A DNA stretch of 64,000 nt from Patescibacteria group bacterium. GTDB taxonomy: Bacteria > Patescibacteriota > Minisyncoccia > Minisyncoccales > CAZWNE01. The position numbers and the translations under genes were made by a program. Below, piece after piece: positions 21,065-54,674 of this stretch. Within the stretch, counting starts at the first letter, position 1. Every line of letters begins with the position of its first letter. The notes beneath the pieces were generated by a model. The model was not told the origin of the DNA, searched no databases, and saw nothing but the letters and a program-made list of their open reading frames with translations. The DNA lies in NCBI GenBank assembly GCA_038078735.1, contig JBBTTI010000003.1, forward strand, positions 8,538-72,537. The letters are read 5' to 3'.

Positions 21065-21833
21065 TAGCGAGAAGTGTTCTCGCTAATATTTATTCAATTA
21101 CAACTTGATCAAAATCGGCTAATTCTTTTTTAGATTGCAACCAATCGTTAACAAATCTTTGGCAGCCTTGAACGCCGCCCATTAGTTCGGTTAGAAATTC
21201 CCTGCTGGTTAAAGATGGAAAATTTTTCTCGTCTAAATAATCTATGTAGCTTGACCAGCGATATTTCTTTAAAAATTTTAATACTTTCTGAAAGTCCCCA
21301 CCCTTAATCCCCTTTTCTTTCCAACCCGGAACTATTATCGCCACAGGGTTAGTATGAATATAAACAAAAACGGTCATTAGTTGATTGTCATTTTTAATAT
21401 GAACTAGCTTATATCTTCCATCAAACAAATGTCCGCTTCTTTTATATTTTTTATTATAATATCCGCCGTACCCAGCGCCAAGCTTTCTCATAAATTTACT
21501 AATCCCACCTTCGCCAAGCTGTCTAAGCAATAAATGGATATGATTCGGCATCAAACAAAACGCCAATATCTCCACTAATAGTTTTCTCTTCCTTCTTTTA
21601 TCCCTTTCTAATAGTCCGAGAAATGTTCTCGAACTATTGAAACTTCGACGAAAATTCCATAACGCTGGCGCTTCATCGTTAAATTCAAACAGATCATGAA
21701 TCATCCTAAAATAATCTTTTTCGTCGCGAAAAAGCTTCAAGCCTTCTATCGCTCTGATTACAACATGGTATATTTCTCCAGTAACTAATGGCGGTCGTTT
21801 TGTGGACATATAATGTGCCGAGAAATGTTCTCG
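21065..21833 (-). mobile_element. RAYT/IS200-like unit 1: Y1 transposase gene flanked by CGAGAA..TTCTCG hairpins
   Basis: TAGCGAGAAgtgTTCTCGCTA at 21065..21085, CGAGAAatgTTCTCG at 21819..21833, and an intragenic copy at 21617..21631. Confidence 0.6.
21090..21809 (-). CDS. COG1943 / IS200-like HuH Y1 transposase (REP-associated tyrosine transposase-like)
   Basis: HuH motif LMPNHIHLLL and the YIHTNPV tyrosine motif. Paralogous to 40181..40879. Confidence 0.7.
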   Translation of the reverse strand: MSTKRPPLVTGEIYHVVIRAIEGLKLFRDEKDYFRMIHDLFEFNDEAPALWNFRRSFNSSRTFLGLLERDKRRKRKLLVEILAFCLMPNHIHLLLRQLGEGGISKFMRKLGAGYGGYYNKKYKRSGHLFDGRYKLVHIKNDNQLMTVFVYIHTNPVAIIVPGWKEKGIKGGDFQKVLKFLKKYRWSSYIDYLDEKNFPSLTSREFLTELMGGVQGCQRFVNDWLQSKKELADFDQVVIE

Positions 21834-40157: not shown

Positions 40158-40939
40158 GTAGATGTTTGACATCTACAAGCCTAATCAATTGATAATTTCC
40201 CAAGAATTTCTTTAGTATTTCTAACTAAAAGAGCATTATAAATAAATTCCTTATAACTTTTATTATTACCAGATGATAGTCCTAAACTATTTCTATCCCC
40301 TTCATCTATAATAAATAGATTACGTTTTAATAAAGTATCCTGAAGACTGCTAAAAGAATAATTTGTAGCAAAATCAAAAGCCTTATCAAATTGTTTAACG
40401 GCCGCCTCTGTCCCTCCGGGATAAAGTTCAATTGGATTCAAAACTTGAATATAAGCGTCAAGATACTGGATATACTCATCATTTTTTATTGTTTTTGACT
40501 TATATGATCCTTGGAAAACTTTCCCCGATTCTTTATATTTTGTATTAATATAATTAGTGAAACCACCACTAAGTTTTTTCATAAACATACTTACTCCGCC
40601 TTCCTTTATTTCTTTTAGCAGCAAGTGAAAATGGTTTGGCATTAAACAAAAAGAGAGAATTTTTACTAACGGTTTTGGCACCGGCCATTCTGCTGGCCTA
40701 CTAAAAGTATTATTTTTTACTTGACGAAAAATATTAGATAAAGAATATTCGTCATTAAAATAACGAAGAATTTTCAAAAAACGCCATTTATCATTATCGT
40801 CTTGTGTAATCGGCATTTTCCGATTACCTCGATTATAAACGTGGATATAATCACCCACCGTAAATGCTTCTTTTCTCATAGGTTTATTTTAATCCAATCC
40901 ATCCGTAGGTGTCAAACCGTAGATGTCAAACATCTACGG
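40158..40939 (-). mobile_element. RAYT/IS200-like unit 2: Y1 transposase gene flanked by GTAGATG..CATCTAC hairpins
   Basis: GTAGATGT-ttg-ACATCTAC at 40158..40176 and CCGTAGATG-tcaaa-CATCTACGG at 40917..40939, plus a degenerate half-copy at 40902..40915. Confidence 0.65.
40181..40879 (-). CDS. COG1943 / IS200-like HuH Y1 transposase (RAYT-like), paralog 2
   Basis: LMPNHFHLLL HuH motif, GGVSMFMKKL, YIQVLNP tyrosine-region motif. Paralogous to 21090..21809. Confidence 0.7.
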   Translation of the reverse strand: MRKEAFTVGDYIHVYNRGNRKMPITQDDNDKWRFLKILRYFNDEYSLSNIFRQVKNNTFSRPAEWPVPKPLVKILSFCLMPNHFHLLLKEIKEGGVSMFMKKLSGGFTNYINTKYKESGKVFQGSYKSKTIKNDEYIQYLDAYIQVLNPIELYPGGTEAAVKQFDKAFDFATNYSFSSLQDTLLKRNLFIIDEGDRNSLGLSSGNNKSYKEFIYNALLVRNTKEILGKLSID

Positions 40940-44051: not shown

Positions 44052-44372
44052 TTACAGCTTAAGTTCGTCTAAATCTCCGCCGGCTGAGGGAGCTGTCCTC
44101 TCGCGAGGAACCCTCGTACTGCCTTCCGGTTCTTCGATCTTCAAATTCACTCTAGCGTGATTTTTAAGACCGACAATTCGAACCAAGGATCTTATTCCTC
44201 TGGCAGTATTGCCTTCCTTGCCGATAACCACTCCCATGTCTTCGGGATTCACTTTCAAAGAAAGTAGAACTCCCATTTCGTCAACCTTGCGGTCGACTTT
44301 GACATCATCGGGATTATCAACCAGGGCTTTGATTATAAATTCAAGAAATTCCTGATCAGATGATTTTGCCAT
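44052..44372 (-). CDS. KH-domain RNA-binding protein (KhpA/YlqC-like)
   Basis: GxxG KH motif (VIGKEGNTARGIR) in a 106-aa protein within the rpsP-trmD operon. Confidence 0.75.
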   Translation of the reverse strand: MAKSSDQEFLEFIIKALVDNPDDVKVDRKVDEMGVLLSLKVNPEDMGVVIGKEGNTARGIRSLVRIVGLKNHARVNLKIEEPEGSTRVPRERTAPSAGGDLDELKL

Positions 44373-44474
44373 AGTCTCTTCGGTTTTATCTTTTAATTCT
44401 TATATTCAAGCGACCTTTACTTGTATTGATATTTTATTCCTTCCAAATCCTTTGTCAACCCCTTAAAAAACTTT

Positions 44475-44530
44475 CCCATCTTTCAGCCCACCCTTCGGCT
44501 CGCTTAAGGCAAGCCAATGATGAGCTGAAA
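44475..44530. repeat. CCCATCTTTCAGCC...ATGAGCTGAAA element, copy 1
   Basis: 7-bp closing stem TTTCAGC/GCTGAAA around a variable insert. Copies 2 and 3 are at 48371 and 49064. Confidence 0.65.
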
Positions 44531-44596
44531 TTGGGAGGCGAGACAAAAGAGTAAGCTCCCTTCCGTTTCGCCTCAGATTTGGCGTAGGTAAAACGT

Positions 44597-44980
44597 CTAT
44601 TCCGAAAGATAATCTTTATAATTTTCCCTTACAGCATATCCTAATTTTTTTGCTGCTTTGCAGGGTTTCCGGAACTCGGTTTCAATGCGCTCTTTTAATA
44701 TTAGCTCCCTCTCCATTTTCATACGATAATTCGTTATTCTTTGGCCTATATCGATAGGAGGAGGCGCTCCTTGCATAAACTGTTCAAGTCTCCAATCTTC
44801 TTTCATGGCTTTATTGAGAATGCGCATGCGCTCAGAAAGTTTAGAGTCAACAATTTTTTGTTCCCCTTCCCGCTCTTTAGGGTTCAATGAGGGTTTAAAT
44901 CCAAAATATTCCCTGAACTCCCTTAAGAGCCAAAATTGAAAGATTCCCCGGATAATACCCTTAATAAGTCTCTTATTCAT
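44597..44980 (-). CDS. hypothetical protein (127 aa)
   Basis: Charged helical protein between rpsP and the KH gene, at the position where rimM would be expected. Not RimM-like. Confidence 0.45.
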   Translation of the reverse strand: MNKRLIKGIIRGIFQFWLLREFREYFGFKPSLNPKEREGEQKIVDSKLSERMRILNKAMKEDWRLEQFMQGAPPPIDIGQRITNYRMKMERELILKERIETEFRKPCKAAKKLGYAVRENYKDYLSE

Positions 44981-45101
44981 TTTATCCCCCTTATTAAAAA
45001 GCTATTTCTAATTTTTTTTATATCATAACTAAATAATTTGTCAATGGGCGAAGCTCCATTTATGGAGCGAGACGAAAGATGAGAGTCGTAACTCTCATCG
45101 C

Positions 45102-45130
45102 ACAAAAACCCCCAACATATCGTCGGGGGC
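45102..45130 (-). terminator. rho-independent terminator after rpsP
   Basis: GCCCCCGACGATATGTTGGGGG + TTTTTG on the minus strand. Confidence 0.6.
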
Positions 45131-45153
45131 TAATAAACTTAGAAACTCCGTTT

Positions 45154-45465
45154 CTAAGTAGCGGGAACTGGGGCGGGAGCTGCGACTGGGGGCTTCTTGC
45201 TCTTCCTCTGCAAAGGAATTTTTTTGGCTTCAATAATCTTTTCGGCAATAAACAAATTATGAATCGTTGGCGAGGGCTGAGCGCCTATTCCCAACCAATA
45301 TTTTATTCTTTCTATTTTAAAACCCTTTTCCTTAGTTCGGGAATTATAAAATCCGACTTCCTCGGTAAAACGGCCGCTTTTGGGCGGATTTTTCTTATCG
45401 GTTACCACTATCTTAAATGACGGCTGATTTTTTTTACCTACTCTAAATAATCTTATTGTTAACAT
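45154..45465 (-). CDS. rpsP: 30S ribosomal protein S16
   Basis: MLTIRLFRVGKKNQPSFKIVVTDKKNPPKSGRF. Confidence 0.9.
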   Translation of the reverse strand: MLTIRLFRVGKKNQPSFKIVVTDKKNPPKSGRFTEEVGFYNSRTKEKGFKIERIKYWLGIGAQPSPTIHNLFIAEKIIEAKKIPLQRKSKKPPVAAPAPVPAT

Positions 45466-45471
45466 ATATGG

Positions 45472-46164
45472 TTACCAGTTATTTATTTTTAAACCATTTT
45501 TGGCGGCTACTTCTTCCGCTTCCTGCTTAGAAGAACCTTCTCCCTTGGCTATTAATTTTTCTCCTAAAAATACTCCGATGACAAAATTTTTAGCGTGATC
45601 CGGACCCTGTTCGCCCAGAACTTTATAAATTGGAGTGATCTTACTTATTTCCTGGGCCTGCTCCTGAAAGTGCGATTTGGCATCCCGGAAAAGTTTGTTC
45701 TCCAATATTTTCGGCAGTTCTTTAATCAAAACTTTGTCAATAAACTCTTTTGATTTTTTATAACCTTGATCAAGATAGACTGCGCCGGTAAATGACTCAA
45801 AACTGTTGGCCAGAATATAATCCCTTGCCTTGCCAAGATTGTCTTTGGACTCGCCCTTGGAAAGCAATAAATAATCATTGAATCCGAGCTCTTTAGCAGT
45901 CTTGGATAAAGTGTCGGCATTGACCAACGCCGCTCGCCAAGTTGTTAATTCTCCTTCCGGTTCTTTGGGAAATTCTTTGTAAAGATACTCTGTTACCGCC
46001 AGCTCCAATACGGCATCGCCTAAAAATTCCATTCTTTCATTATGCGCCAAATAAAAGGTCGGGTTTTCGTTCAGATAAGAGCGATGGGTAAATGCCTGAG
46101 TTAACAAGTCCTTATTTTTAAATTTCAAACCTAATTTTTTTTCTAAACCCGAGAAATCTTGCAT
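45472..46164 (-). CDS. rnc: ribonuclease III
   Basis: RNase III signature ERMEFLGDAVLE plus a C-terminal dsRBD. Confidence 0.9.
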   Translation of the reverse strand: MQDFSGLEKKLGLKFKNKDLLTQAFTHRSYLNENPTFYLAHNERMEFLGDAVLELAVTEYLYKEFPKEPEGELTTWRAALVNADTLSKTAKELGFNDYLLLSKGESKDNLGKARDYILANSFESFTGAVYLDQGYKKSKEFIDKVLIKELPKILENKLFRDAKSHFQEQAQEISKITPIYKVLGEQGPDHAKNFVIGVFLGEKLIAKGEGSSKQEAEEVAAKNGLKINNW

Positions 46165-46165
46165 A

Positions 46166-46585
46166 CTATTTATCTATTTCTTTATACACCGTGCCCAATA
46201 CTCCGTTAATAAATTTCCCTGAATTTTCTCCGCCAAAACTCTTGGCCAATTCTATGGCTTCGTTAATCGCCACCTTTGGAGGCACGGCAGTTTTGTCTTC
46301 ATATAAAAGTTCGTACAACCCCATCCTTAAAACATTCCTGTCTATAATTGAAATTTGATCAATCGGCCATTGGGGCGCGGCTTTTTCAATAATTTTATCT
46401 ATTTCCTGTATGTGCTGGACTATGCCCGTCACCAACTGCCAAGTAAATGACTTATCTTCCAGCCCGGGTCCGAACTCCCCTATATTTCTTTCCGTAATTT
46501 TTTGCAAATCAGATTTCTTTTCAGAAAAATCCCATTCATATAACGACTGCATTGCTATTGAACGCGATAAATGTCTGCTTGCCAT
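46166..46585 (-). CDS. nusB: transcription antitermination factor NusB
   Basis: All-helical NusB fold motifs ([22 protein letters not shown]). Confidence 0.85.
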
Positions 46586-46586
46586 A

Positions 46587-46880
46587 CTATTTTTTGCTAA
46601 GCCCTTCCCAATTTAATGGTTTTTCTTTTCCAATTGTTTTCCCTTCGGCTTCCTTGACGGCCATCTCTCTTTCTTTCATCTTTCTTTCTTTTTTATTTAA
46701 TTTCTTTAAAACATCTATCGCCTCCACCCCTTTGTAATATCCGCAACTATGGCAAACCGTATGCGCCAAAACCGCCTTGCCGCATTTCGGGCAGACAGCT
46801 TTGCCGGGATTCGCCAAAAAAATATGCATCCTTCTTCTATTTCTCCTATTTTTTGTATGCCTTTGTTTAGGTTGAGCCAT
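46587..46880 (-). CDS. rpmF: 50S ribosomal protein L32 (with Lys/Glu-rich C-terminal extension)
   Basis: RRRMHIFL...[22 protein letters not shown] zinc ribbon. Confidence 0.8.
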
Positions 46881-46882
46881 AG

Positions 46883-47557
46883 TCAGAATTTGAAACTATT
46901 TCTATGTATAGCACATCGTCCAAATCTTTTCAACATTTCAAGGTGTAATTTCGTTCCATAGCCCTTATGAAGATCAAATCGGTATTTTGGGAACTTTTTA
47001 TGATACTTGAGCATTATTCTGTCCCTCGTCACTTTGGCTAAAATTGAAGCCGCGGCGCAGGAAAAAACTTTTTCATCGCCCTTCACGATTAGTTTGTAGT
47101 TTATAATTTTTAGTTTATAGTTTTTGATATTATTGCCGTCTATTATCAAAAAATCGGGCTTCAACTTTTTAATCGCTCTTGCCATCGCTAACTCTGCCGC
47201 ATTTTTAATATTAATCTTATCTATGATTTTTTCTGAAACAATGCCAATCCCCCATCTTATATTTTTATCTTTTGTTATTAAGTTATAAAAAAATTCCCGC
47301 TGTTTTGCAGATAATTGCTTTGAGTCCCTAATTTTTAGGAGAACGCTTCTCCCTTGGAGAAACGTTCTCCAATTTATTATCACCGCTCCTGCCACCACCG
47401 GCCCGGCCAACGGCCCACGGCCGGCCTCATCCAACCCAGCCACATTCTTAAATCCTTTTTTCCACAATTTTTTTTCTTCCGCTAGTGTCGCATACCGCAT
47501 GTTTTTTATTTTAGCACAAAAAAAGATGGGAAAGTTAGATAAATCTAACTTTCCCAT
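46883..47557 (-). CDS. rnhB: ribonuclease HII
   Basis: GLDEAGRGPLAGPVVAGAVI and later DSK...AASILAK motifs. The true start may be the internal Met (MRYATLAEEK). Confidence 0.85.
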   Translation of the reverse strand: MGKLDLSNFPIFFCAKIKNMRYATLAEEKKLWKKGFKNVAGLDEAGRGPLAGPVVAGAVIINWRTFLQGRSVLLKIRDSKQLSAKQREFFYNLITKDKNIRWGIGIVSEKIIDKINIKNAAELAMARAIKKLKPDFLIIDGNNIKNYKLKIINYKLIVKGDEKVFSCAAASILAKVTRDRIMLKYHKKFPKYRFDLHKGYGTKLHLEMLKRFGRCAIHRNSFKF

Positions 47558-47569
47558 CCTAAGGACTAA

Positions 47570-47761
47570 TTACCAAAGATCCTTATTCTTTTCGAGCCAC
47601 TCTTCGGCTCTTGGGTTATTTTTCACTTGAGCAATCGCTCTAGTAAAAGATTGTTTTACCTCCGTCCGAAGAGTCCCATTTCCACCGATAGCTTCCACCC
47701 TATCTGTGAATTTCATTTCTGTAAGAGTAAGGTATTTTTGATTTTTTTCTGTCTTTCTCAT
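47570..47761 (-). CDS. small hypothetical protein (~63 aa), translationally coupled to the upstream ORF
   Basis: GGAGG SD. The start abuts the stop of 47765..48181. Higher GC. Confidence 0.35.
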   Translation of the reverse strand: MRKTEKNQKYLTLTEMKFTDRVEAIGGNGTLRTEVKQSFTRAIAQVKNNPRAEEWLEKNKDLW

Positions 47762-47764
47762 CAC

Positions 47765-48181
47765 TTACTCCTCCGCACTCATTCGGTCCGCGCCACATTT
47801 AGAGCAATAGCGCTGACCTACCACTACTAAATGTTCGCAAACAGGATGTTTCTCTAATTTTTGGGGAATAATCTCCCCAGCGCGCGAATGAGGTGAGTAA
47901 CGAGCGTCTTTTAACTCTACTAATACCCCGGGTAAAAGCTCAATCATATCGCCCGTCAAATCCCAAAAATCCCTCTTTTTTATACGTACCACATGTCTTT
48001 TCCCATTCTTAAGAGTAATTTCGACATCCCCACCCCTAAGAAAAGCGGTCATAAGATCCAGCTCCCCTGGGCCGTTAACGATTTCAACTTTATCTAAAAC
48101 ACCACTAGCCATAACGGCTTCCTCCTTTAGAAATACTGCGCATTTTCTCTCCCATAACGGTGAGAGTGCGGATTTCTCCAT
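47765..48181 (-). CDS. hypothetical protein with C-terminal Cys/His cluster
   Basis: Up to 138 aa, ending ..HPVCEHLVVVGQRYCSKCGADR, a zinc-ribbon-like cluster. About 50% GC. Confidence 0.4.
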   Translation of the reverse strand: MEKSALSPLWERKCAVFLKEEAVMASGVLDKVEIVNGPGELDLMTAFLRGGDVEITLKNGKRHVVRIKKRDFWDLTGDMIELLPGVLVELKDARYSPHSRAGEIIPQKLEKHPVCEHLVVVGQRYCSKCGADRMSAEE

Positions 48182-48339
48182 AGCAGCGAACTAAACACTA
48201 ATTTTATAATGTCCACTTCGCCGCTATAAAGATTTTTTTAAAGAGCCTACCAGTAAACTTTCATTAAATATAACACATATTGAACAATTTGGTAAGCCAT
48301 ATAAATTAAGTTTGATTTTTTATTATTCGTGTTAGGGTT

Positions 48340-48360
48340 GTTAGGTACTCAGTATCTAAC
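48340..48360. repeat. REP-like palindrome family A (GTTAGGTACT-c-AGTATCTAAC)
   Basis: Preceded by a gttagg half-site. Immediately 5' of CCCATCTTTCAGCC copy 2. Confidence 0.7.
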
Positions 48361-48370
48361 ATGTGCCTAT

Positions 48371-48409
48371 CCCATCTTTCAGCCTACAAATTTATTTATG
48401 AGCTGAAAA
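48371..48409. repeat. CCCATCTTTCAGCC...ATGAGCTGAAA element, copy 2
   Basis: Identical core to copy 3. Confidence 0.7.
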
Positions 48410-48484
48410 GTGGAGGAAAACAGATATTGCCGATATTAAATCTGTTTTCCTAGAGGTGCCCCTGTCGGCACAGGAACTTAATTT

Positions 48485-48661
48485 TTAATGCCTCAGTGCA
48501 TACCATAATGCAACTGCAATAAAAATTACAAGCATTACCAAAATTATGATCATGACAATCTCGCCCAAGGGATTGCCAAGCCAGTTCATTAGTAATTTAG
48601 TTAAAATTATTGTTAGGAGCACAATTATTGCTCCTCGTAATCCCTTTATTTTCTTTTTCAT
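48485..48661 (-). CDS. 58-aa two-TM membrane peptide
   Basis: MKKKIKGLRGAIIVLLTIILTKLLMNWLGNPLGEIVMIIILVMLVIFIAVALWYALRH with SD GAGGAAAAAATG. Under the ORF-track cutoff. Confidence 0.35.
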   Translation of the reverse strand: MKKKIKGLRGAIIVLLTIILTKLLMNWLGNPLGEIVMIIILVMLVIFIAVALWYALRH

Positions 48662-48689
48662 TTTTTCCTCACTTTATTTTATTTTTCAG

Positions 48690-48990
48690 TCCGCCAAGGC
48701 GAACTGCTATTGCCAAAGAACCATCTTAATTGATATAGGTGGGAGTTGTCGCAAGCCGGTCTGGCTTAACCCGACAACTCCCAACTTATTTTAGAGGAAG
48801 GCTTCGAACTTTTCCTTGCGGAAACCAGCGAAAAATATAGAATGGCACGCTTCTATATTTTAGCCGGAAGTCCGAGCCGTCTATCTGCAATCGCAATACA
48901 GGATGGCCCGACCGTACGTGCCAAACTTCGGTTGTGGGCCAGATAGACATTCCTTCCTCTCGGAAATTCCCGATATAGAAACTTCCGAAA
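48690..48990. ncRNA. densely nested structured region (candidate ncRNA or long structured 5' leader)
   Basis: Long-range GAGGAAGG/CCTTCCTC closure around GTCTATCTG/CAGATAGAC, GGCCC/GGGCC, TATAGAA/TTCTATA and TTTCC-GCAA-GGAAA helices, plus a 12-bp GGGAGTTGTCG/CGACAACTCCC stem. Strand undetermined. Confidence 0.35.
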
Positions 48991-49008
48991 AAAAAGATAT
49001 TTTAGGTT

Positions 49009-49029
49009 GTTAGATACTCAGTACCTAAC
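49009..49029. repeat. REP-like palindrome family A (GTTAGATACT-c-AGTACCTAAC)
   Basis: Immediately 5' of CCCATCTTTCAGCC copy 3. Confidence 0.7.
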
Positions 49030-49063
49030 ACGTGTCTATCCAATAATTTATAATTTGTTGATT

Positions 49064-49102
49064 CCCATCTTTCAGCCTACAAATTTATTTATGAGCTGAA
49101 AA
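49064..49102. repeat. CCCATCTTTCAGCC...ATGAGCTGAAA element, copy 3
   Basis: Followed by a GAGGAGTT..AACTCCTC hairpin and a GC-hairpin/T-run. Confidence 0.7.
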
Positions 49103-49171
49103 TGAGAGAGGAGTTGTTTTATTTTATGCCGAAACTCCTCTTCAACTTCGCCCGTTCGGCCCGGGCTTTTT

Positions 49172-49447
49172 TTATTTCACGCAGCGTAGCTGCTCACTAT
49201 TGGTATTGGGTGACGCTAAACGAAAACATATGATTCCACCCATAAGAGGATCGTAATACCTGTAGAGATTCGGATTTTTCGCTACAAGCACCCAACCTGT
49301 AATTTCTTCCGTGGGTGGCACGGGTATTGGCACGAGCATCTTAGGTGCACATGCACCCAAGAAAACTGAAATAGCAACCAAAAAGATTCCAAGCAAGATT
49401 ATCCTCACGATTTCCTCCTTATATATTCCTCTTCCTTTTACCGACAC
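49172..49447 (-). CDS. small lipoprotein, hypothetical
   Basis: Signal peptide with lipobox LGAC. 91 aa. Confidence 0.4.
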   Translation of the reverse strand: MSVKGRGIYKEEIVRIILLGIFLVAISVFLGACAPKMLVPIPVPPTEEITGWVLVAKNPNLYRYYDPLMGGIICFRLASPNTNSEQLRCVK

Positions 49448-49937: not shown

Positions 49938-50333
49938 ATGATACAAATAAAAAATAATAAATTAATCTATCCTGAATTATCTTATTTAATTACGGGAATA
50001 TGCTTTGAGGCGCATAACAAATTAGGGAGATATGCTAGAGAAAAACAATATGGCGATTTATTGGAACAAAAGTTTAAAGAAATAAAAATTCCCTACAAAA
50101 GAGAGTTAAGGATATTTAAAACTGGCAATACAATAGATTTCCTTATTGATGATAAAATTCTTTTAGAATTAAAAGCGAAACCGTTGATTGTCAAAGAAGA
50201 TTATTATCAAACGCAAAGATATTTACAGTCGCTTAATATAAAACTCGCCTTATTAATAAATTTTCGGAACCGCTATTTAAAACCAAATAGAATTATAAGG
50301 ATAGATACTGATATAAAAAATAAATTTCTCTAA
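49938..50333 (+). CDS. GxxExxY-family protein (PD-(D/E)xK nuclease-like fold)
   Basis: LSYLITGICFEAHNKLG..EKQYGDLLEQ... then DFLIDDKILLELKAK..LINF. Matches the GxxExxY family layout. Confidence 0.75.
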   Translation: MIQIKNNKLIYPELSYLITGICFEAHNKLGRYAREKQYGDLLEQKFKEIKIPYKRELRIFKTGNTIDFLIDDKILLELKAKPLIVKEDYYQTQRYLQSLNIKLALLINFRNRYLKPNRIIRIDTDIKNKFL

Positions 50334-50375: not shown

Positions 50376-53300
50376 ATGAAGTTTACTCATTTACATGTTC
50401 ACTCTCATTACTCTCTTTTGGACGGCTTGCCGAAGATTGACCAGCTTTTGGATTATGTCAAAGAACTGGGAATGGATTCGGTGGCTTTAACCGACCACGG
50501 AGTAATTTACGGCGCCGTGGAATTTTATAAAAAAGCCAAAGCCAAAGGAATCAAACCAATCATTGGCTGTGAAATGTATGTTGCTTTTGAAGGAATGCAC
50601 CAGGAGAGGCCCAATATAGATGATAAAAAATACCATTTAATTTTATTGGTAAAAAATGAAACCGGCTATAAGAATTTAGTTAAACTTATTACCAAAGCCC
50701 AGCTTGAAGGATTTTATTACAAACCCAGAATTGATGAAGAACTTTTAGCTCAACATGCCGAGGGATTAATCGGCCTGACTGCTTGTTTACAGGGCAAAAT
50801 CCCCCGCTTGATTCTGTCCGGTAAAATTGATGAAGCTGAAAAAATCGCTTTGAAATATCAAACAATTTTCGGCAAAGATAATTTTTATCTGGAACTGCAA
50901 AGCCATCCCAATATTCCGGCTCAAGATAAAGTCAATAAAGTATTAATTTCTCTTTCTAAAAAATTAAATATTCCTTTAGTTGCCACCACTGACTGCCATT
51001 ACCTTCGGCCCGAAGACAGCGATGCCCAGGATGTTTTAATGCTCATAAACACCGGAGCCGATATCAATGACCCCGAACGTTTAACAATGAAGGGAGAAGA
51101 CTTTTCTATGCACTCTGCGGAGCGCATGGCAGAAGATTTTAAGGAAATTCCCGAAGCCATTGAAAATACCCAAAAAATTAAAGACGCCTGTAATTTTGAA
51201 TTTAAATTAGGCGAAATAAAACTTCCTTCTTTCCCCGTGCCAGATAATAAAACGCCAGACGATTATTTAAAAGAACTTTGTTATGAACGATTGGAAAAAA
51301 GATTTCCGGAAAAATCAAAAGAAGTTATTGACCGGTTGGAATATGAACTATCAACGATTGCCAAGTTCGGGTTTGCCCCATATTTTTTAATTGTCCAAGA
51401 TTTCGTTAATTGGGCCAAACAGAACCGAATCGTTGTCGGTCCGGGCAGGGGTTCGGCCGGAGGCTCGTTAACAGCTTATGTTTTGGGAATTACCAATATT
51501 GATCCATTAAAATATAATCTTTTATTTGAAAGATTTTTGAATCCCGGTCGCAGCGCTTCGCCGCCCGATATTGATTTGGATTTTACCGATAGAAGAAGAG
51601 ATGAAGTGATAAATTATGTTGCCGAAAAATACGGCCGAGACAAGGTTTCCCAGATTATTACTTTCGGCACAATGGCCGCCCGAGCTGTTATTCGCGATGT
51701 CGGCCGGGCTTTGGCCTATCCTTACAGTTTTTGCGACCAACTGGCTAAAATGGTTCCTTTTGGTATGACTCTTGATCAAGCATTGGCCAACGTTGCTGAT
51801 TTACGAAAAATATATCTTGAAGATTCGCAAGCTCAAAAATTAATTGATTTTGCTAAAAAACTGGAAGGCGTCGCCCGCCACGCTTCCACCCATGCCTGCG
51901 GCGTGGTTATTTCCAAGGAACCCTTGGACAATATTATTCCTTTACAGCACCCGACCCAAAATGATAAAAACATTGTTACCCAATATGAGATGCATTCAAT
52001 TGAAGATTTGGGAATTTTGAAAATGGATTTTCTTGGTTTAAAAAACTTAACGATTATTGAAGATGCTTTAGCCAGAATTTATAAAGTACAGAATAAATCA
52101 ATTGATATTGAGAATATCCCATTAGATGATAAAGCAACTTTCAAATTATTTCAAAAAGCCGAGACGGTCGGCGTTTTTCAATTAGAATGTTTGTCAGGAG
52201 ATACTATTATTTCAAATACTACAATTAAAAAATTATATGAAAGAAAAAATAAAAAAAGATTGACATCTATCTATTTGGATGAAGGCAAGGTTCATTTGAA
52301 TAAAATTATTGATGTTTTTGAAAGTGGTGAAAAGGATGTTTATTCTTTGATCACGGAGAATAATTGGTATATTAAGTCAACTAAAAATCATTATTTTTTA
52401 ACAAAAGATGGCTGGAAAAAATTAGAAAATATAAAGCCGAACGACGAAGTTTTAATTGGTAATAAGGCCAAACATTTAATTTATAATAACTGTGAAACAT
52501 GCGGAAAACAAATAAGCGGACAAAAAGAAGGTAAAAGCAAATTTTGTTACCATTGTTCGGCTATTTTTTACAAGAATCCAAGTAAAAGAGAATCGAGAGA
52601 AAAAATTAGTGCGGCAAGAATAAAGTTTTATCAGCAAGGTGGTAGGCCTTGGAATATCGGAATAACTACTGAAAATAACGAAGTCTGGAAAAGAACTGCT
52701 AAAAAAATATCTCAAGCGCTAAAGGGCAGAAGCCTAGAAGAATTATGGGGGAAAGAAAGAGCAGAATATTTTAAACAATCTCATTCGAAGAGGATGAGGG
52801 GAGAAAATAATCCTATGTTCGGGAAAAAATGCCCTCATCGAAAAGGTGGCTTTAGAGAAGATTTGAAACATTATGTTCGCTCTACCTGGGAAGCAGATTT
52901 TGCCCGAATTTTAAAACTTAAAAATTTAGATTATCAATATGAACCATCAACTTTTAAATTAACAAGGCGAAATGGAGAAATCCTCCATTACACGCCGGAT
53001 TTTTATGTTAAATCTAATAATACTTTCTATGAGATTAAAGGCTTCCTTAGAGATTTAGACGAAGAAAAAATGGAATTATTTCAACGGCAATATCCGCAAT
53101 ATAATTTTATAATAATCAACACAACTAAATTCGCTGAATTTGCCCTACAATATAAAACACTGGTTAATTGGGAATGTCCGCAAATACCAAAGAAAAATTA
53201 CGAATTTATTAAAGTAAAAAAAATAAAATATAGCGGGCGAGAAAAAACTTACGATATTAAGATGCAGTCGCCGGGCAATAATTTTGTAGCTAACGGTTTT

Positions 53301-54674
53301 ATAGTTCACAATAGCGACGGTATGCGCCGATATTTGAAAGAATTAAAACCAAACGGCTTAGACGATATTATTGCCATGGTCGCCCTTTACCGACCTGGTC
53401 CGATGCAGTTTATTCCTGATTATATTTCCGGGAAACAAGGGGAAAAAATGATTGAATATATACATCCCAAATTAAAACCGATTTTGGAAGAGACTTACGG
53501 CATTTGCGTTTATCAGGAACAAGTTATGAGAATTGCCAGGGATTTAGCCGGGTTTTCTATGTCAGAAGCCGATATTTTAAGAAAAGCCATCGGTAAAAAA
53601 ATCAAAAAACTTCTAATGGATCAGGAAGAAAAATTTATTAAAGGCTGCGAAAAAAACGAAATTCCGAACAATATCGCCCAGAAAATCTGGCGCTGGATTG
53701 AGCCGTTTGCCCAATATTCATTCAATAAATCTCACGCTACGGCTTACGCTTTAATCGCCTACCAAACCGCCTATTTAAAAACTAATTTCCCGGCTGAGTT
53801 TATGGCTTCATTTTTAACTTCGGAAAAAGCTGACGTAGAAAGAATCGGCTTCATAATCGGCGAATGCAAAAAAATGGGTTTGGAAGTTTTAGCTCCCGAT
53901 ATTAATGAAAGTTTTGCCTTTTTTAGCGTGGTTCCTCAAAGAAACCAAATCCGCTTTGGGCTAACTGCCATAAAAAATGTTGGAGAAAATATTGTTAAGG
54001 CTATTGTTGAAGAAAGAAAACAAAATGGCCCTTATCTCTCAATCTCCGATTTTGTCAGCCGAGTTAATTCTAAAGACTTGAATAAAAAATCATTAGAAAG
54101 TTTAATCAAAGCCGGCGCTTTTGATAAATTTACCGAAAGAAACCAATTATTGCAGAATATGGAAAAATTATTGGAATCGGCCAGAGAAACTCAGAAAAAT
54201 AAAAACAACGGCCAGCAAGGTCTTTTCCAAGGAATTTCTCAAAATACTGATTTTTCTCTTCAGCCGGCAGTTTTGGCTACTAAAGCGGAAAAGCTGGCTT
54301 GGGAAAAAGAATTACTGGGATTATTTGTCAGCTCGCATCCTTTGGAAAATTTCAGCAAGATTTTAGAAGAAAAAACTCAGAGCATTGAGAAAATAAAGGC
54401 TAATTTTACAAAGTTAGTTCGCAAGCCGGTTAAAATTGGCGGGATAATTTCTTCAATCAAAAAAATTATCACCAAAACCGGCCGGCCGATGTTTTTTATG
54501 AACTTAGAAGATATGAAAGACAAAATTGAAGTGGTCGTTTTTCCTAACGCCATTGAAAGAAACCCCTCGGCCTTTCAGGAAAATAAAATCGTTTTTATTT
54601 CAGGCAGAGTTGACGACCGAAACGGCACGCCCAAAGTCATCTGCGAATCAATAGAAGAAATTATTGAAAGCTAA
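50376..54674 (+). CDS. dnaE: DNA polymerase III alpha subunit, interrupted by an intein
   Basis: PHP domain (HLHVHSHYSLLDG), palm/fingers motifs, OB fold. The host sequence ..VGVFQLE / SDGMRRYLKEL.. is split by a 375-aa insertion. Confidence 0.9.
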   Translation: MKFTHLHVHSHYSLLDGLPKIDQLLDYVKELGMDSVALTDHGVIYGAVEFYKKAKAKGIKPIIGCEMYVAFEGMHQERPNIDDKKYHLILLVKNETGYKNLVKLITKAQLEGFYYKPRIDEELLAQHAEGLIGLTACLQGKIPRLILSGKIDEAEKIALKYQTIFGKDNFYLELQSHPNIPAQDKVNKVLISLSKKLNIPLVATTDCHYLRPEDSDAQDVLMLINTGADINDPERLTMKGEDFSMHSAERMAEDFKEIPEAIENTQKIKDACNFEFKLGEIKLPSFPVPDNKTPDDYLKELCYERLEKRFPEKSKEVIDRLEYELSTIAKFGFAPYFLIVQDFVNWAKQNRIVVGPGRGSAGGSLTAYVLGITNIDPLKYNLLFERFLNPGRSASPPDIDLDFTDRRRDEVINYVAEKYGRDKVSQIITFGTMAARAVIRDVGRALAYPYSFCDQLAKMVPFGMTLDQALANVADLRKIYLEDSQAQKLIDFAKKLEGVARHASTHACGVVISKEPLDNIIPLQHPTQNDKNIVTQYEMHSIEDLGILKMDFLGLKNLTIIEDALARIYKVQNKSIDIENIPLDDKATFKLFQKAETVGVFQLECLSGDTIISNTTIKKLYERKNKKRLTSIYLDEGKVHLNKIIDVFESGEKDVYSLITENNWYIKSTKNHYFLTKDGWKKLENIKPNDEVLIGNKAKHLIYNNCETCGKQISGQKEGKSKFCYHCSAIFYKNPSKRESREKISAARIKFYQQGGRPWNIGITTENNEVWKRTAKKISQALKGRSLEELWGKERAEYFKQSHSKRMRGENNPMFGKKCPHRKGGFREDLKHYVRSTWEADFARILKLKNLDYQYEPSTFKLTRRNGEILHYTPDFYVKSNNTFYEIKGFLRDLDEEKMELFQRQYPQYNFIIINTTKFAEFALQYKTLVNWECPQIPKKNYEFIKVKKIKYSGREKTYDIKMQSPGNNFVANGFIVHNSDGMRRYLKELKPNGLDDIIAMVALYRPGPMQFIPDYISGKQGEKMIEYIHPKLKPILEETYGICVYQEQVMRIARDLAGFSMSEADILRKAIGKKIKKLLMDQEEKFIKGCEKNEIPNNIAQKIWRWIEPFAQYSFNKSHATAYALIAYQTAYLKTNFPAEFMASFLTSEKADVERIGFIIGECKKMGLEVLAPDINESFAFFSVVPQRNQIRFGLTAIKNVGENIVKAIVEERKQNGPYLSISDFVSRVNSKDLNKKSLESLIKAGAFDKFTERNQLLQNMEKLLESARETQKNKNNGQQGLFQGISQNTDFSLQPAVLATKAEKLAWEKELLGLFVSSHPLENFSKILEEKTQSIEKIKANFTKLVRKPVKIGGIISSIKKIITKTGRPMFFMNLEDMKDKIEVVVFPNAIERNPSAFQENKIVFISGRVDDRNGTPKVICESIEEIIES
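52188..53312 (+). mobile_element. DnaE intein (Cys1...His-Asn, +1 Ser) with embedded zinc-ribbon / 3x NUMOD3-like / PD-(D/E)xK-like endonuclease module
   Basis: Block A CLSGDTII, block B TKNHYF (TxxH), blocks F/G YDIKMQSPGNNFVANGFIVHN. Insert has CETCG...CYHC, three repeats such as SREKISAARIKF, AKKISQALKGR and HSKRMRGENNPMFGKK, then HYTPDFYV...YEIKG. Confidence 0.85.

Follow-up and report, generated by a model that had tools for sequence, protein, structure and literature searches.

A short stem-loop sequence recurs three times among small genes near the khpA and dnaE genes of a Patescibacteria group bacterium, which raises the questions of whether these repeats are related by more than chance, on which strand they act and what they do. 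In the window, that is, the whole 64,000-nucleotide stretch of DNA that was analyzed, a search with CCCATCTTTCAGCC found three exact plus-strand sites, at 44475 (copy A), 48371 (copy B) and 49064 (copy C). With up to two mismatches allowed, shuffled sequences gave 0.58 matches on average and reached three matches in 3 of 100 shuffles. The paired pattern TTTCAGC..GCTGAAA, for which the chance expectation is about 0.01–0.03, was seen at all three copies and at one unrelated site, 22913. The initial annotation had given copies B and C an identical core of 39 nt, which proved to be 40 nt long (48370–48409 and 49063–49102), and it was right that copy A keeps the closing stem around a different interior: both conserved halves are kept, with an insert of 35 nt versus 17 nt in B and C. 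The three repeats are real members of a conserved two-hairpin family, beyond chance or local duplication. The earlier view that the similarity is not random is upheld by a conserved family with independent copies in many metagenomes, and these independently conserved copies also dispose of the alternative that the element is simply part of a larger duplicated block.

Relatives were identified on JGI metagenome contigs by an exact-pattern scan, which yielded 25 loci (referred to by L numbers), 21 of them with the full architecture including the unselected flanks. A covariance model made from these metagenome loci recovered diverged copies that the pattern had missed, and 36 distinct copies were collected, from groundwater and sediment metagenomes. 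On contigs encoding KhpA homologues at 78–84% identity, a sample unselected for the element, further copies were located upstream of khpA in L071, L073, L081/L083 and L087/L088, and in the khpA-oriented loci the better-scoring match of every element was on the khpA strand. The best named relatives of KhpA were from Candidatus Nealsonbacteria and Patescibacteria. Apart from one doubtful match, the element was absent from four related genomes (L067–L070). A 16-mer of the 3' arm had 12 matches in IMG/VR, none of them confirmed by the covariance model, and the element is not phage-borne there. The exact pattern also matched 15 sites in GTDB representative genomes, which were attributed to chance, as they were in unrelated taxa and the flanking features were absent. 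No family of Rfam 15 (including hammerhead, twister, pistol, hatchet, riboswitches and sRNAs) matched the window over the element at the gathering score, none matched 44300–49400 at E ≤ 10, and none matched in 14 related loci. We found no published description of the element in the literature or in Rfam. The element is thus undescribed, and the kind to which it belongs, repeated structured intergenic modules that flank accessory gene cassettes, is known.

The functional strand of the element is the minus strand of the window, which is the sense of all neighboring genes. On this strand the order is the stop codon of an ORF, a spacer (with a small extra hairpin in B and C), a first hairpin (H1), a linker of 0–7 nt and a second hairpin (H2). 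The further hairpins mentioned in the initial annotation are therefore real, and correspond to H1 and the short extra hairpin. The three copies and the genes next to them are as follows.

44431..44458, minus strand: khpA promoter-like site, TTGACA-16-TAAAAT, 14 nt past copy A and present in the cassette-free locus L014 too.
44473..44536, minus strand: H2 of copy A, UCCCAA-UUUCAGCUCAUC, a 9-bp inner hairpin and GGGUGGGCUGAAAGAUGGGAA; covariance-model match at 44470–44542, 61.8 bits.
44537..44574, minus strand: H1 of copy A, GAGGCGAAACGGAAGGGAG...CUCGCCUC, with a purine-rich 5' arm and a pyrimidine-rich 3' arm.
44597..44980, minus strand: 127-aa ORFan before copy A, with no Pfam or PHROG family.
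48370..48413, minus strand: H2 of copy B, CCAC-UUUUCAGCUCAUAAAUAAAUUUGUAGGCUGAAAGAUGGGA; covariance-model match at 48366–48420, 67.5 bits.
48414..48451, minus strand: H1 of copy B, AGGAAAACAGAU...AUCUGUUUUCCU, inside the stretch 48394–48457 that is 98% identical to L030.
48485..48661, minus strand: 58-aa hydrophobic ORFan before copy B.
49062..49108, minus strand: H2 of copy C, CUCUCA-UUUUCAGCUCAUAAAUAAAUUUGUAGGCUGAAAGAUGGGAA; covariance-model match at 49059–49113, 70.8 bits.
49107..49141, minus strand: H1 of copy C, AGAGGAGUU...AACUCCUCU.
49172..49447, minus strand: 91-aa lipoprotein-like ORFan before copy C.

In every copy, H2 starts about 50–70 nt past the stop codon of a small ORFan on the same strand. 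Its consensus is (C)CCAUC-UUUCAGCUCAU, a tip of free length (4–45 nt) and RYGGGCUGAAAGAUGGGAA, which form a hairpin of about 20 bp (extended, 17–22 bp) with an internal loop between the outer CCCA/UGGG stem and the inner stem. The initial annotation had read the element on the plus strand, but every copy is in the sense of its ORF and H2 was more stable in that sense in 25 of 29 copies, by 5.1 kcal/mol on average. The three window copies gave folds of -59.3, -43.9 and -37.3 kcal/mol on the minus strand versus -44.3, -37.0 and -30.5 kcal/mol on the plus strand. G·U pairs in H2 numbered 59 in the ORF sense versus 17, a count in which many wobble positions are common by descent and hence are not independent events. 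H1 showed no strand bias in folding and differs in sequence in every window copy. About 32 of 36 copies have it within 0–7 nt of H2, its median length being 12 bp, and it was polar in 34 of 36, the 5' arm being 79% purines (GGAAG/GGAGG-like) and the 3' arm 21% (CUUCC/CCUCC-like). Compensatory changes were seen between orthologous H1s, with GGAGAAAGC/GCUUUCUC in L033 corresponding to GGAGGAAGC/GCUUCCUC in L045.

A covariance-model search had been proposed as a check on the element, and besides further copies it showed that the closing stem is kept through compensatory and wobble changes around a variable tip. Standard pairs filled 86.5% of the H2 cells among the 36 distinct copies, and 11 of the 19 pairs were changed on both sides, values that none of 500 shuffles equaled; when the partner was slid by 1–3 columns, pairing was 35–55%. 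Double changes include CAGUUC/GGACUG in L087_3054 and UCUUAG/UUGAGA in L081_2825, and the outer stem of L036_2243 is wholly different (CACCUCC/GGAGGUG). The 3' arm of H2 is nearly invariant and far more conserved than the 5' arm. Even among the 15 copies recovered by the model only, 10 were exact over the 13-nt GGCUGAAAGAUGG and 3 over the 9-nt UUUCAGCUC. With G in place of A, GAAAG would keep its pairing with UUUC; the sequence conservation of the purine-rich 3' arm GGGCUGAAAGAUGGGAA therefore makes it probable that a sequence-specific factor reads it.

Neither H1 nor H2 is a canonical intrinsic terminator, because no U-tract directly adjoins them: H2 is followed by GAUGGGAA and A-rich sequence without a U-tract, and H1 by 4–6 non-U bases and then UUU(U)C. 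A terminator scan of the minus strand flagged other hairpins, not H1 or H2, and the canonical hairpin-then-U-tract form is used by this genome at 45078–45099 and 47523–47560. The latter is a perfect 17-bp hairpin with a U7 tail on the minus strand, after a 64-aa ORF. Its arms hold GAUGGGAAAG and CUUUCCCAUC, with a 10-mer identical to the H2 base, which may reflect derivation from the element or coincidence.

The initial annotation had further described two of the copies as fused to REP-like palindromes, directly 3' of them. The palindromes beside copies B and C are of the form GTTAG.TAC...GTA.CTAAC and belong to a separate family dispersed through the window.

48340–48360, no strand assigned: REP-like palindrome GTTAGGTACTCAGTATCTAAC, 10 nt from copy B and outside the element.
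49009–49029, no strand assigned: REP-like palindrome GTTAGATACTCAGTACCTAAC, 34 nt from copy C and outside the element.

The description holds for copy B, is loose for copy C and does not apply to copy A, which has no REP. Fusion to REPs is specific to this genome, as a GTTAGGTACTCAGTATCTAAC-type palindrome adjoins none of the 33 related copies from other organisms. The neighboring palindromes therefore stand apart from the element, and their association with it is local and incidental. The minus strand encodes two IS200-like Y1_Tnp (RAYT-like) genes, at 21090–21809 and 40181–40879, and GTTAGAC...GTCTAAC palindromes are scattered in the window, for example at 37, 5620, 5938, 11597, 35689, 36098, 55249 and 55645. 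The Y1_Tnp genes plausibly act on these scattered palindromes.

Gene-context analysis showed that the element is restricted to two places. All related loci have the order thrS-dnaE (opposite strand), rnhB-rpmF-nusB-rnc-rpsP and khpA-trmD and, wherever flanks were recognizable, the element was found only in the dnaE|rnhB and rpsP|khpA gaps of Nealsonbacteria-like bacteria. The dnaE|rnhB gap holds copies B and C of the window and those of L030 and L047, and the rpsP|khpA gap holds copy A and those of L031, L033, L039/L051, L045, L048, L050, L071, L081 and L087. The only three copies in the window are thus at 44.4–49.2 kb, in two hotspots and a single orientation, and elsewhere, flanks of up to 18 kb had none within or between core genes. 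Copies are arranged in tandem, co-oriented arrays, with 5–6 copies 300–500 bp apart in L036, three in L039/L051 and two each in L030, L033, L035, L048, L050 and L054. The content of the rpsP|khpA gap varies: L014 (a strain variant), L067 and L069 have no cassette there, the window has one and L051 three, L071 has six small ORFs, and L033 has four ORFs together with two complete elements and an isolated 3' arm. The cassette ORFs tested had no significant Pfam match and no PHROG family, with one sub-threshold Pfam match (RyR domain). Some recur between loci, namely a GPGxxDLM family (including 47765–48112 of the window), a VGEFxLRPDSDSG family and a TM family. The 127-aa ORFan has its own upstream promoter-like TTGACA-17-TATAAA (by eye), and each window copy is followed by a promoter-like site (found by a scan, for copy C by eye). 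In some relatives the SD and ATG of the next ORF are within 25–35 nt of H2, so the element can be internal to a polycistronic transcript.

Other features were observed at the edge of the dnaE|rnhB hotspot. The plus-strand DnaE at 50376–54674 is 1432 aa long, versus about 1055 aa in L067–L069, and apparently contains an intein with an insert resembling a homing endonuclease; Hom_end_hint and Intein_splicing were matched in the L071 orthologues, and in L067 it is the neighboring rnhB that carries an intein. At the dnaE-proximal edge, on the strand opposite to the cassettes, 49938–50333 (plus) encodes a 131-aa protein of the PD-(D/E)XK nuclease superfamily (PDDEXK_3, E 3e-18).

To trace cassette turnover, we compared loci that share flanks. 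L044 is 97% identical to L033 up to the end of H2, the identity ending right after GATGGGAA; it then carries about 900 bp extra, comprising two ORFs and a second H1–H2, and rejoins the post-H2 sequence of L033 at 88% identity. This difference is an indel bounded by two H2 copies. In L014, about 700 bp of the window (promoter, 127-aa ORF, H1 and H2) are missing, up to a point just before the khpA promoter. The 64 nt at 48394–48457, which include the extra hairpin, H1 and the H2 5' arm, are 98% identical between the window and L030, with adjacent dnaE genes that are 79% identical and with different upstream ORFs and H2 tips. The H2 tips are of a few recurrent types, freely combined with different H1s, and gene conversion is indicated by copies B and C, which have a common tip and 3' arm but different H1s. 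The H1–H2 modules of L031 and L050 are orthologous though the upstream ORF differs. Within the second conserved module of these arrays (type a, described below), the relation of L048 to L033 changes from no similarity to 99% identity, and breakpoints were also found inside H2. A lone H2 3' arm, GUGGGCUGAAAGAUGGGAA, without 5' arm or H1, is located at L033 5317–5336 (equal to L048 996–1015), between a 64-aa TM ORF and the SD of the next ORF, 10 nt upstream of that SD. The strain pairs L071/L073/L077/L079, L081/L083 and L087/L088 were collinear across the arrays and therefore gave no junctions. In related lineages that lack H2, the rpsP-khpA gap holds repeated intergenic modules of another kind, such as a unit of terminator plus -10 in L070, and since the same gap is variable in them, H2 is not required for hotspot variation. 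Taken together, scattered breakpoints, within-genome homogenization and lineage-specific modules fit homologous exchange better than a single site-specific crossover. L014 is a scaffold in which a run of N at 683–692 joins two alternative sequences upstream of khpA, a sign that strains of a single sample differ at the rpsP-khpA gap.

Several non-coding stretches besides H1–H2 were observed in these arrays. One of them, which we call the type a module, lies in the 5' UTR of the cassette ORF that follows it.

48180..48235, minus strand: type a module, a long-range hairpin formed by AUAGCGGCGAAG...UUCGCUGCUAU.

The probable real start of that ORF is the ATG at 48112. The layout of the module is TAGTTCTTTGA..TTCATAGCGGCGAAGTGG ... 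GCTCGCCGCTATGA, then AAAGGAGG and the ATG, and it was also seen at L033 3500–3620 and 4966–5090, L039 5695–5813 and 7005–7104, and L048 ~577–735. No Rfam family matches it, and it may be a cis-regulatory RNA in its own right. The region 48662–49008, about 350 nt of non-coding DNA between copies B and C, folds at -132.9 kcal/mol with a z-score of -7.7 on the minus strand (-5.5 on the plus strand). It has no Rfam match either and contains GGAAGUCCGAGC, reminiscent of RNase P CR-I; within it, 48720–48782 (minus) looks like a decayed H1–H2 plus type a module. In three loci (L037 1210–1330, L045 1507–1640 and L054 595–730), a conserved stretch after H2, GAAUUCGCGAGAAAUUCGCGUG.GAGCUAUAUGCUC...UUUCCAUAAAAAAGCGCGCAAUGAGUGACC...GGUCACUGAUU, ends just before the SD and may be another structured leader.

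Our leading explanation, to which we give a little under half of our confidence, is that H1–H2 is a transcribed intercistronic or 3'-UTR module that acts in cis, with a sequence-specific reader, and doubles as a recombination junction. The element would form the end of each small ORFan cassette at the two hypervariable sites of a conserved housekeeping operon. The mRNA-sense RNA would fold into the abutting H1, with its SD-like purine 5' arm and CCUCC-type 3' arm, and H2. As a stem-loop for 3'-end formation, processing or insulation, this structure would keep the cassette message apart from its essential neighbors. Homologous exchange at H2 would add, remove and reshuffle cassettes; a role as exchange site is suggested because the same ~45 nt are repeated after every cassette and are common to lineages. 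Among the guesses of the initial annotation (sRNA, attenuator or recombination site), the recombination site stays a live alternative. Against this explanation, an invariant 17-nt arm is more than a hairpin with a purely stabilizing role would require.

Such a double role, as transcript module and shuffling junction, would resemble that of the PeSLs (promoter-early stem-loops) of T4-type phages, mobile regulatory cassettes made of promoter plus stem-loop units between ORFans in hyperplastic regions that mediate modular shuffling (Arbiol et al. 2010, PMC2839356; Comeau et al. 2014, PMC4122927). By analogy, we regard PeSL motifs as the closest precedent. In both cases, short conserved non-coding stem-loop motifs are repeated between small ORFans and interrupt conserved core gene blocks, and insertions, deletions and replacements are bounded by the motif. 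PeSLs contain a strong sigma-70-like promoter, their stem-loop terminates transcription and mini-circles form (PMC2839356, PMC4122927). In contrast, H2 has no consistent -35/-10 inside it or at a fixed distance (by eye), promoter-like sites follow only some copies, and the hairpin has no U-tract and one sequence-invariant arm. The hosts are cellular CPR bacteria, not phages, with zero copies in IMG/VR.

One alternative, itself unlikely, is that H2, alone or stacked on H1, is a site for RNase III or another nuclease or cleaves itself. The polycistronic transcript would be cut between cassettes, so that the message downstream would begin with the conserved 3' arm. The intercistronic position of the element, the 17–22 bp of the extended H2, which is the size of an RNase III substrate, the presence of rnc in the same operon between the hotspots and the lone 3' arm 10 nt upstream of an SD all fit this idea, but RNase III has no need of a conserved sequence. 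Small self-cleaving ribozymes do occur between small unknown genes in arrays. For a ribozyme core, however, it is unusual that the conserved nucleotides are in a helix, not in junctions or loops, and no Rfam ribozyme family matched even at E ≤ 10.

The main rival, though about as unlikely as RNA processing, is that the folded single DNA strand of H2 is the recombination site of an integron-like cassette system, with a distant recombinase that cuts the hairpin base near GAUGGGA|A and inserts or excises cassettes as units. In integrons, attC sites have extrahelical bases and their bottom strand is recombined by IntI. As in attC and CALIN arrays, the element directly follows an ORF, and the small ORFs of the co-oriented arrays mostly have no known function, some of them being without promoters. 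The hairpin that ends each cassette is imperfect and folds strand-asymmetrically; it has a conserved base, a variable terminal structure and, between outer and inner stem, an internal loop where attC has its unpaired spacer, and the taxon-specific sequence conservation is as in VCR-type attC. The invariant 3' arm opposite a drifting 5' arm, the lone 3' arm at L033 5317–5336, the stop of L033/L044 identity right after GATGGGAA and the likeness of GATGGGA to GTTRRRY and of TCCCATC to RYYYAAC (5 of 7 positions each) also favor it. Nevertheless, the outer stem (T)CCCATC ... GATGGGA(A) has the triplets ATC/GAT, not the AAC/GTT that define the core site of attC. Neither the 64-kb window nor the genes called on the look-up loci (up to 18 kb) yielded a tyrosine or serine recombinase, and the arrays are embedded in a ribosomal-protein/RNase operon, between housekeeping genes, without a nearby integrase, attI or Pc. 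H1 has no attC counterpart, the H1–H2 of L031 and L050 are orthologous with differing upstream ORFs, and mosaic breakpoints inside the hairpin and inside another module fit homologous exchange better than a fixed crossover.

A selfish MITE- or REP-like element beside terminator-like hairpins, mobilized in trans, for instance by IS200-like Y1 transposases, is improbable. Y1 (HUH-type) transposases of the IS200/IS605 kind recognize single-strand hairpins and cut a few nt 3' of them. The two Y1_Tnp genes of the window (21090–21809 and 40181–40879), the fixed small distance of H2 from a variable hairpin and the H0-H1-5' arm block that is 98% identical between genomes with 79% identical dnaE would suit such an element. 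Like REPs and BIMEs, which can stabilize upstream mRNA and promote rearrangements, H2 is an intergenic imperfect palindrome of the kind transcribed in 3' UTRs, in a genome with Y1_Tnp genes. REPs, however, are short and have many dispersed copies in both orientations, which fits the GTTAGAC...GTCTAAC palindromes of this genome, whereas H2 is longer, has a variable tip and is confined to cassette arrays in one orientation, with three copies in 64 kb at two hotspots and none in or between core genes elsewhere in flanks of up to 18 kb. Correia/NEMIS MITEs, which RNase III processes, share inverted-repeat arms of ~20 nt, a variable center, RNase III-size hairpins and, probably, co-transcription with flanking genes, but H2 has no TA target duplication, is not dispersed and is always right after an ORF and a preceding hairpin. 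There are no terminal inverted repeats beyond the hairpin, and no target-site duplication is visible at the three window copies, the sole empty site (L014) lacking the ORF too.

Least credible is the first reading of a free-standing plus-strand sRNA or attenuator, with a 5' stem CCCAUCUUUCAGCC...GCUGAAA, variable 3' hairpins and a terminator, antisense to ORF 3' ends: copy C does have a promoter-like CTAACA-18-TATAAT (49025–49054) ending about 7–10 nt before the core and a terminator-like hairpin with a T-run at 49150–49166 (weaker at 48461–48474 in B), but this promoter is in a 24-nt insertion missing from B, A and all relatives, the fold is worse in 25 of 29 copies, G·U pairs turn into A·C mismatches on that strand, no regulable target lies downstream on the plus strand, and in relatives the element is inside co-directional operons whose next ORF, in the minus-strand sense, may begin 25–35 nt past it.

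Other candidates were set aside. A promoter in the 3' arm (CTGAAA/TTGAAA) or in the tip (TAAAAT) was inconsistent across copies in spacing and partner hexamers (by eye), and a hammerhead core (CUGAUGA...GAAA) has no room for stem II. The likeness to lambda boxB and BoxA is superficial only. A Xer/dif-like site, with two 11-nt arms and a center of 6–8 nt, is out, as the center varies from 4 to 45 nt. A mini-ORF from the AUG of GAUGGGA would have 2–42 codons without an SD and is not conserved. Type I toxin–antitoxin systems were dismissed, as small membrane proteins are only some of the upstream ORFs.

The genomes of CPR bacteria are tiny, and little is understood of the ways in which these bacteria gain and express new genes. 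Here, ORFan cassettes are swapped between lineages at two fixed slots of an essential operon (dnaE|rnhB and rpsP|khpA) and carry the same element as a tag, an unusual place and an unusual group for structured modules that flank cassettes. Were the attC-like reading true, unlikely as it is, there would be an unknown CPR cassette-capture system with the core YCCCAUC...GAUGGGR that loads ORFans into fixed slots of a highly expressed housekeeping operon as a functional analogue of integron attC, and it would be a second, independent solution to cassette capture. The element itself is a candidate new cis-acting RNA with a putative sequence-specific reader, and its covariance model is a searchable marker for accessory-gene arrays in metagenomes.
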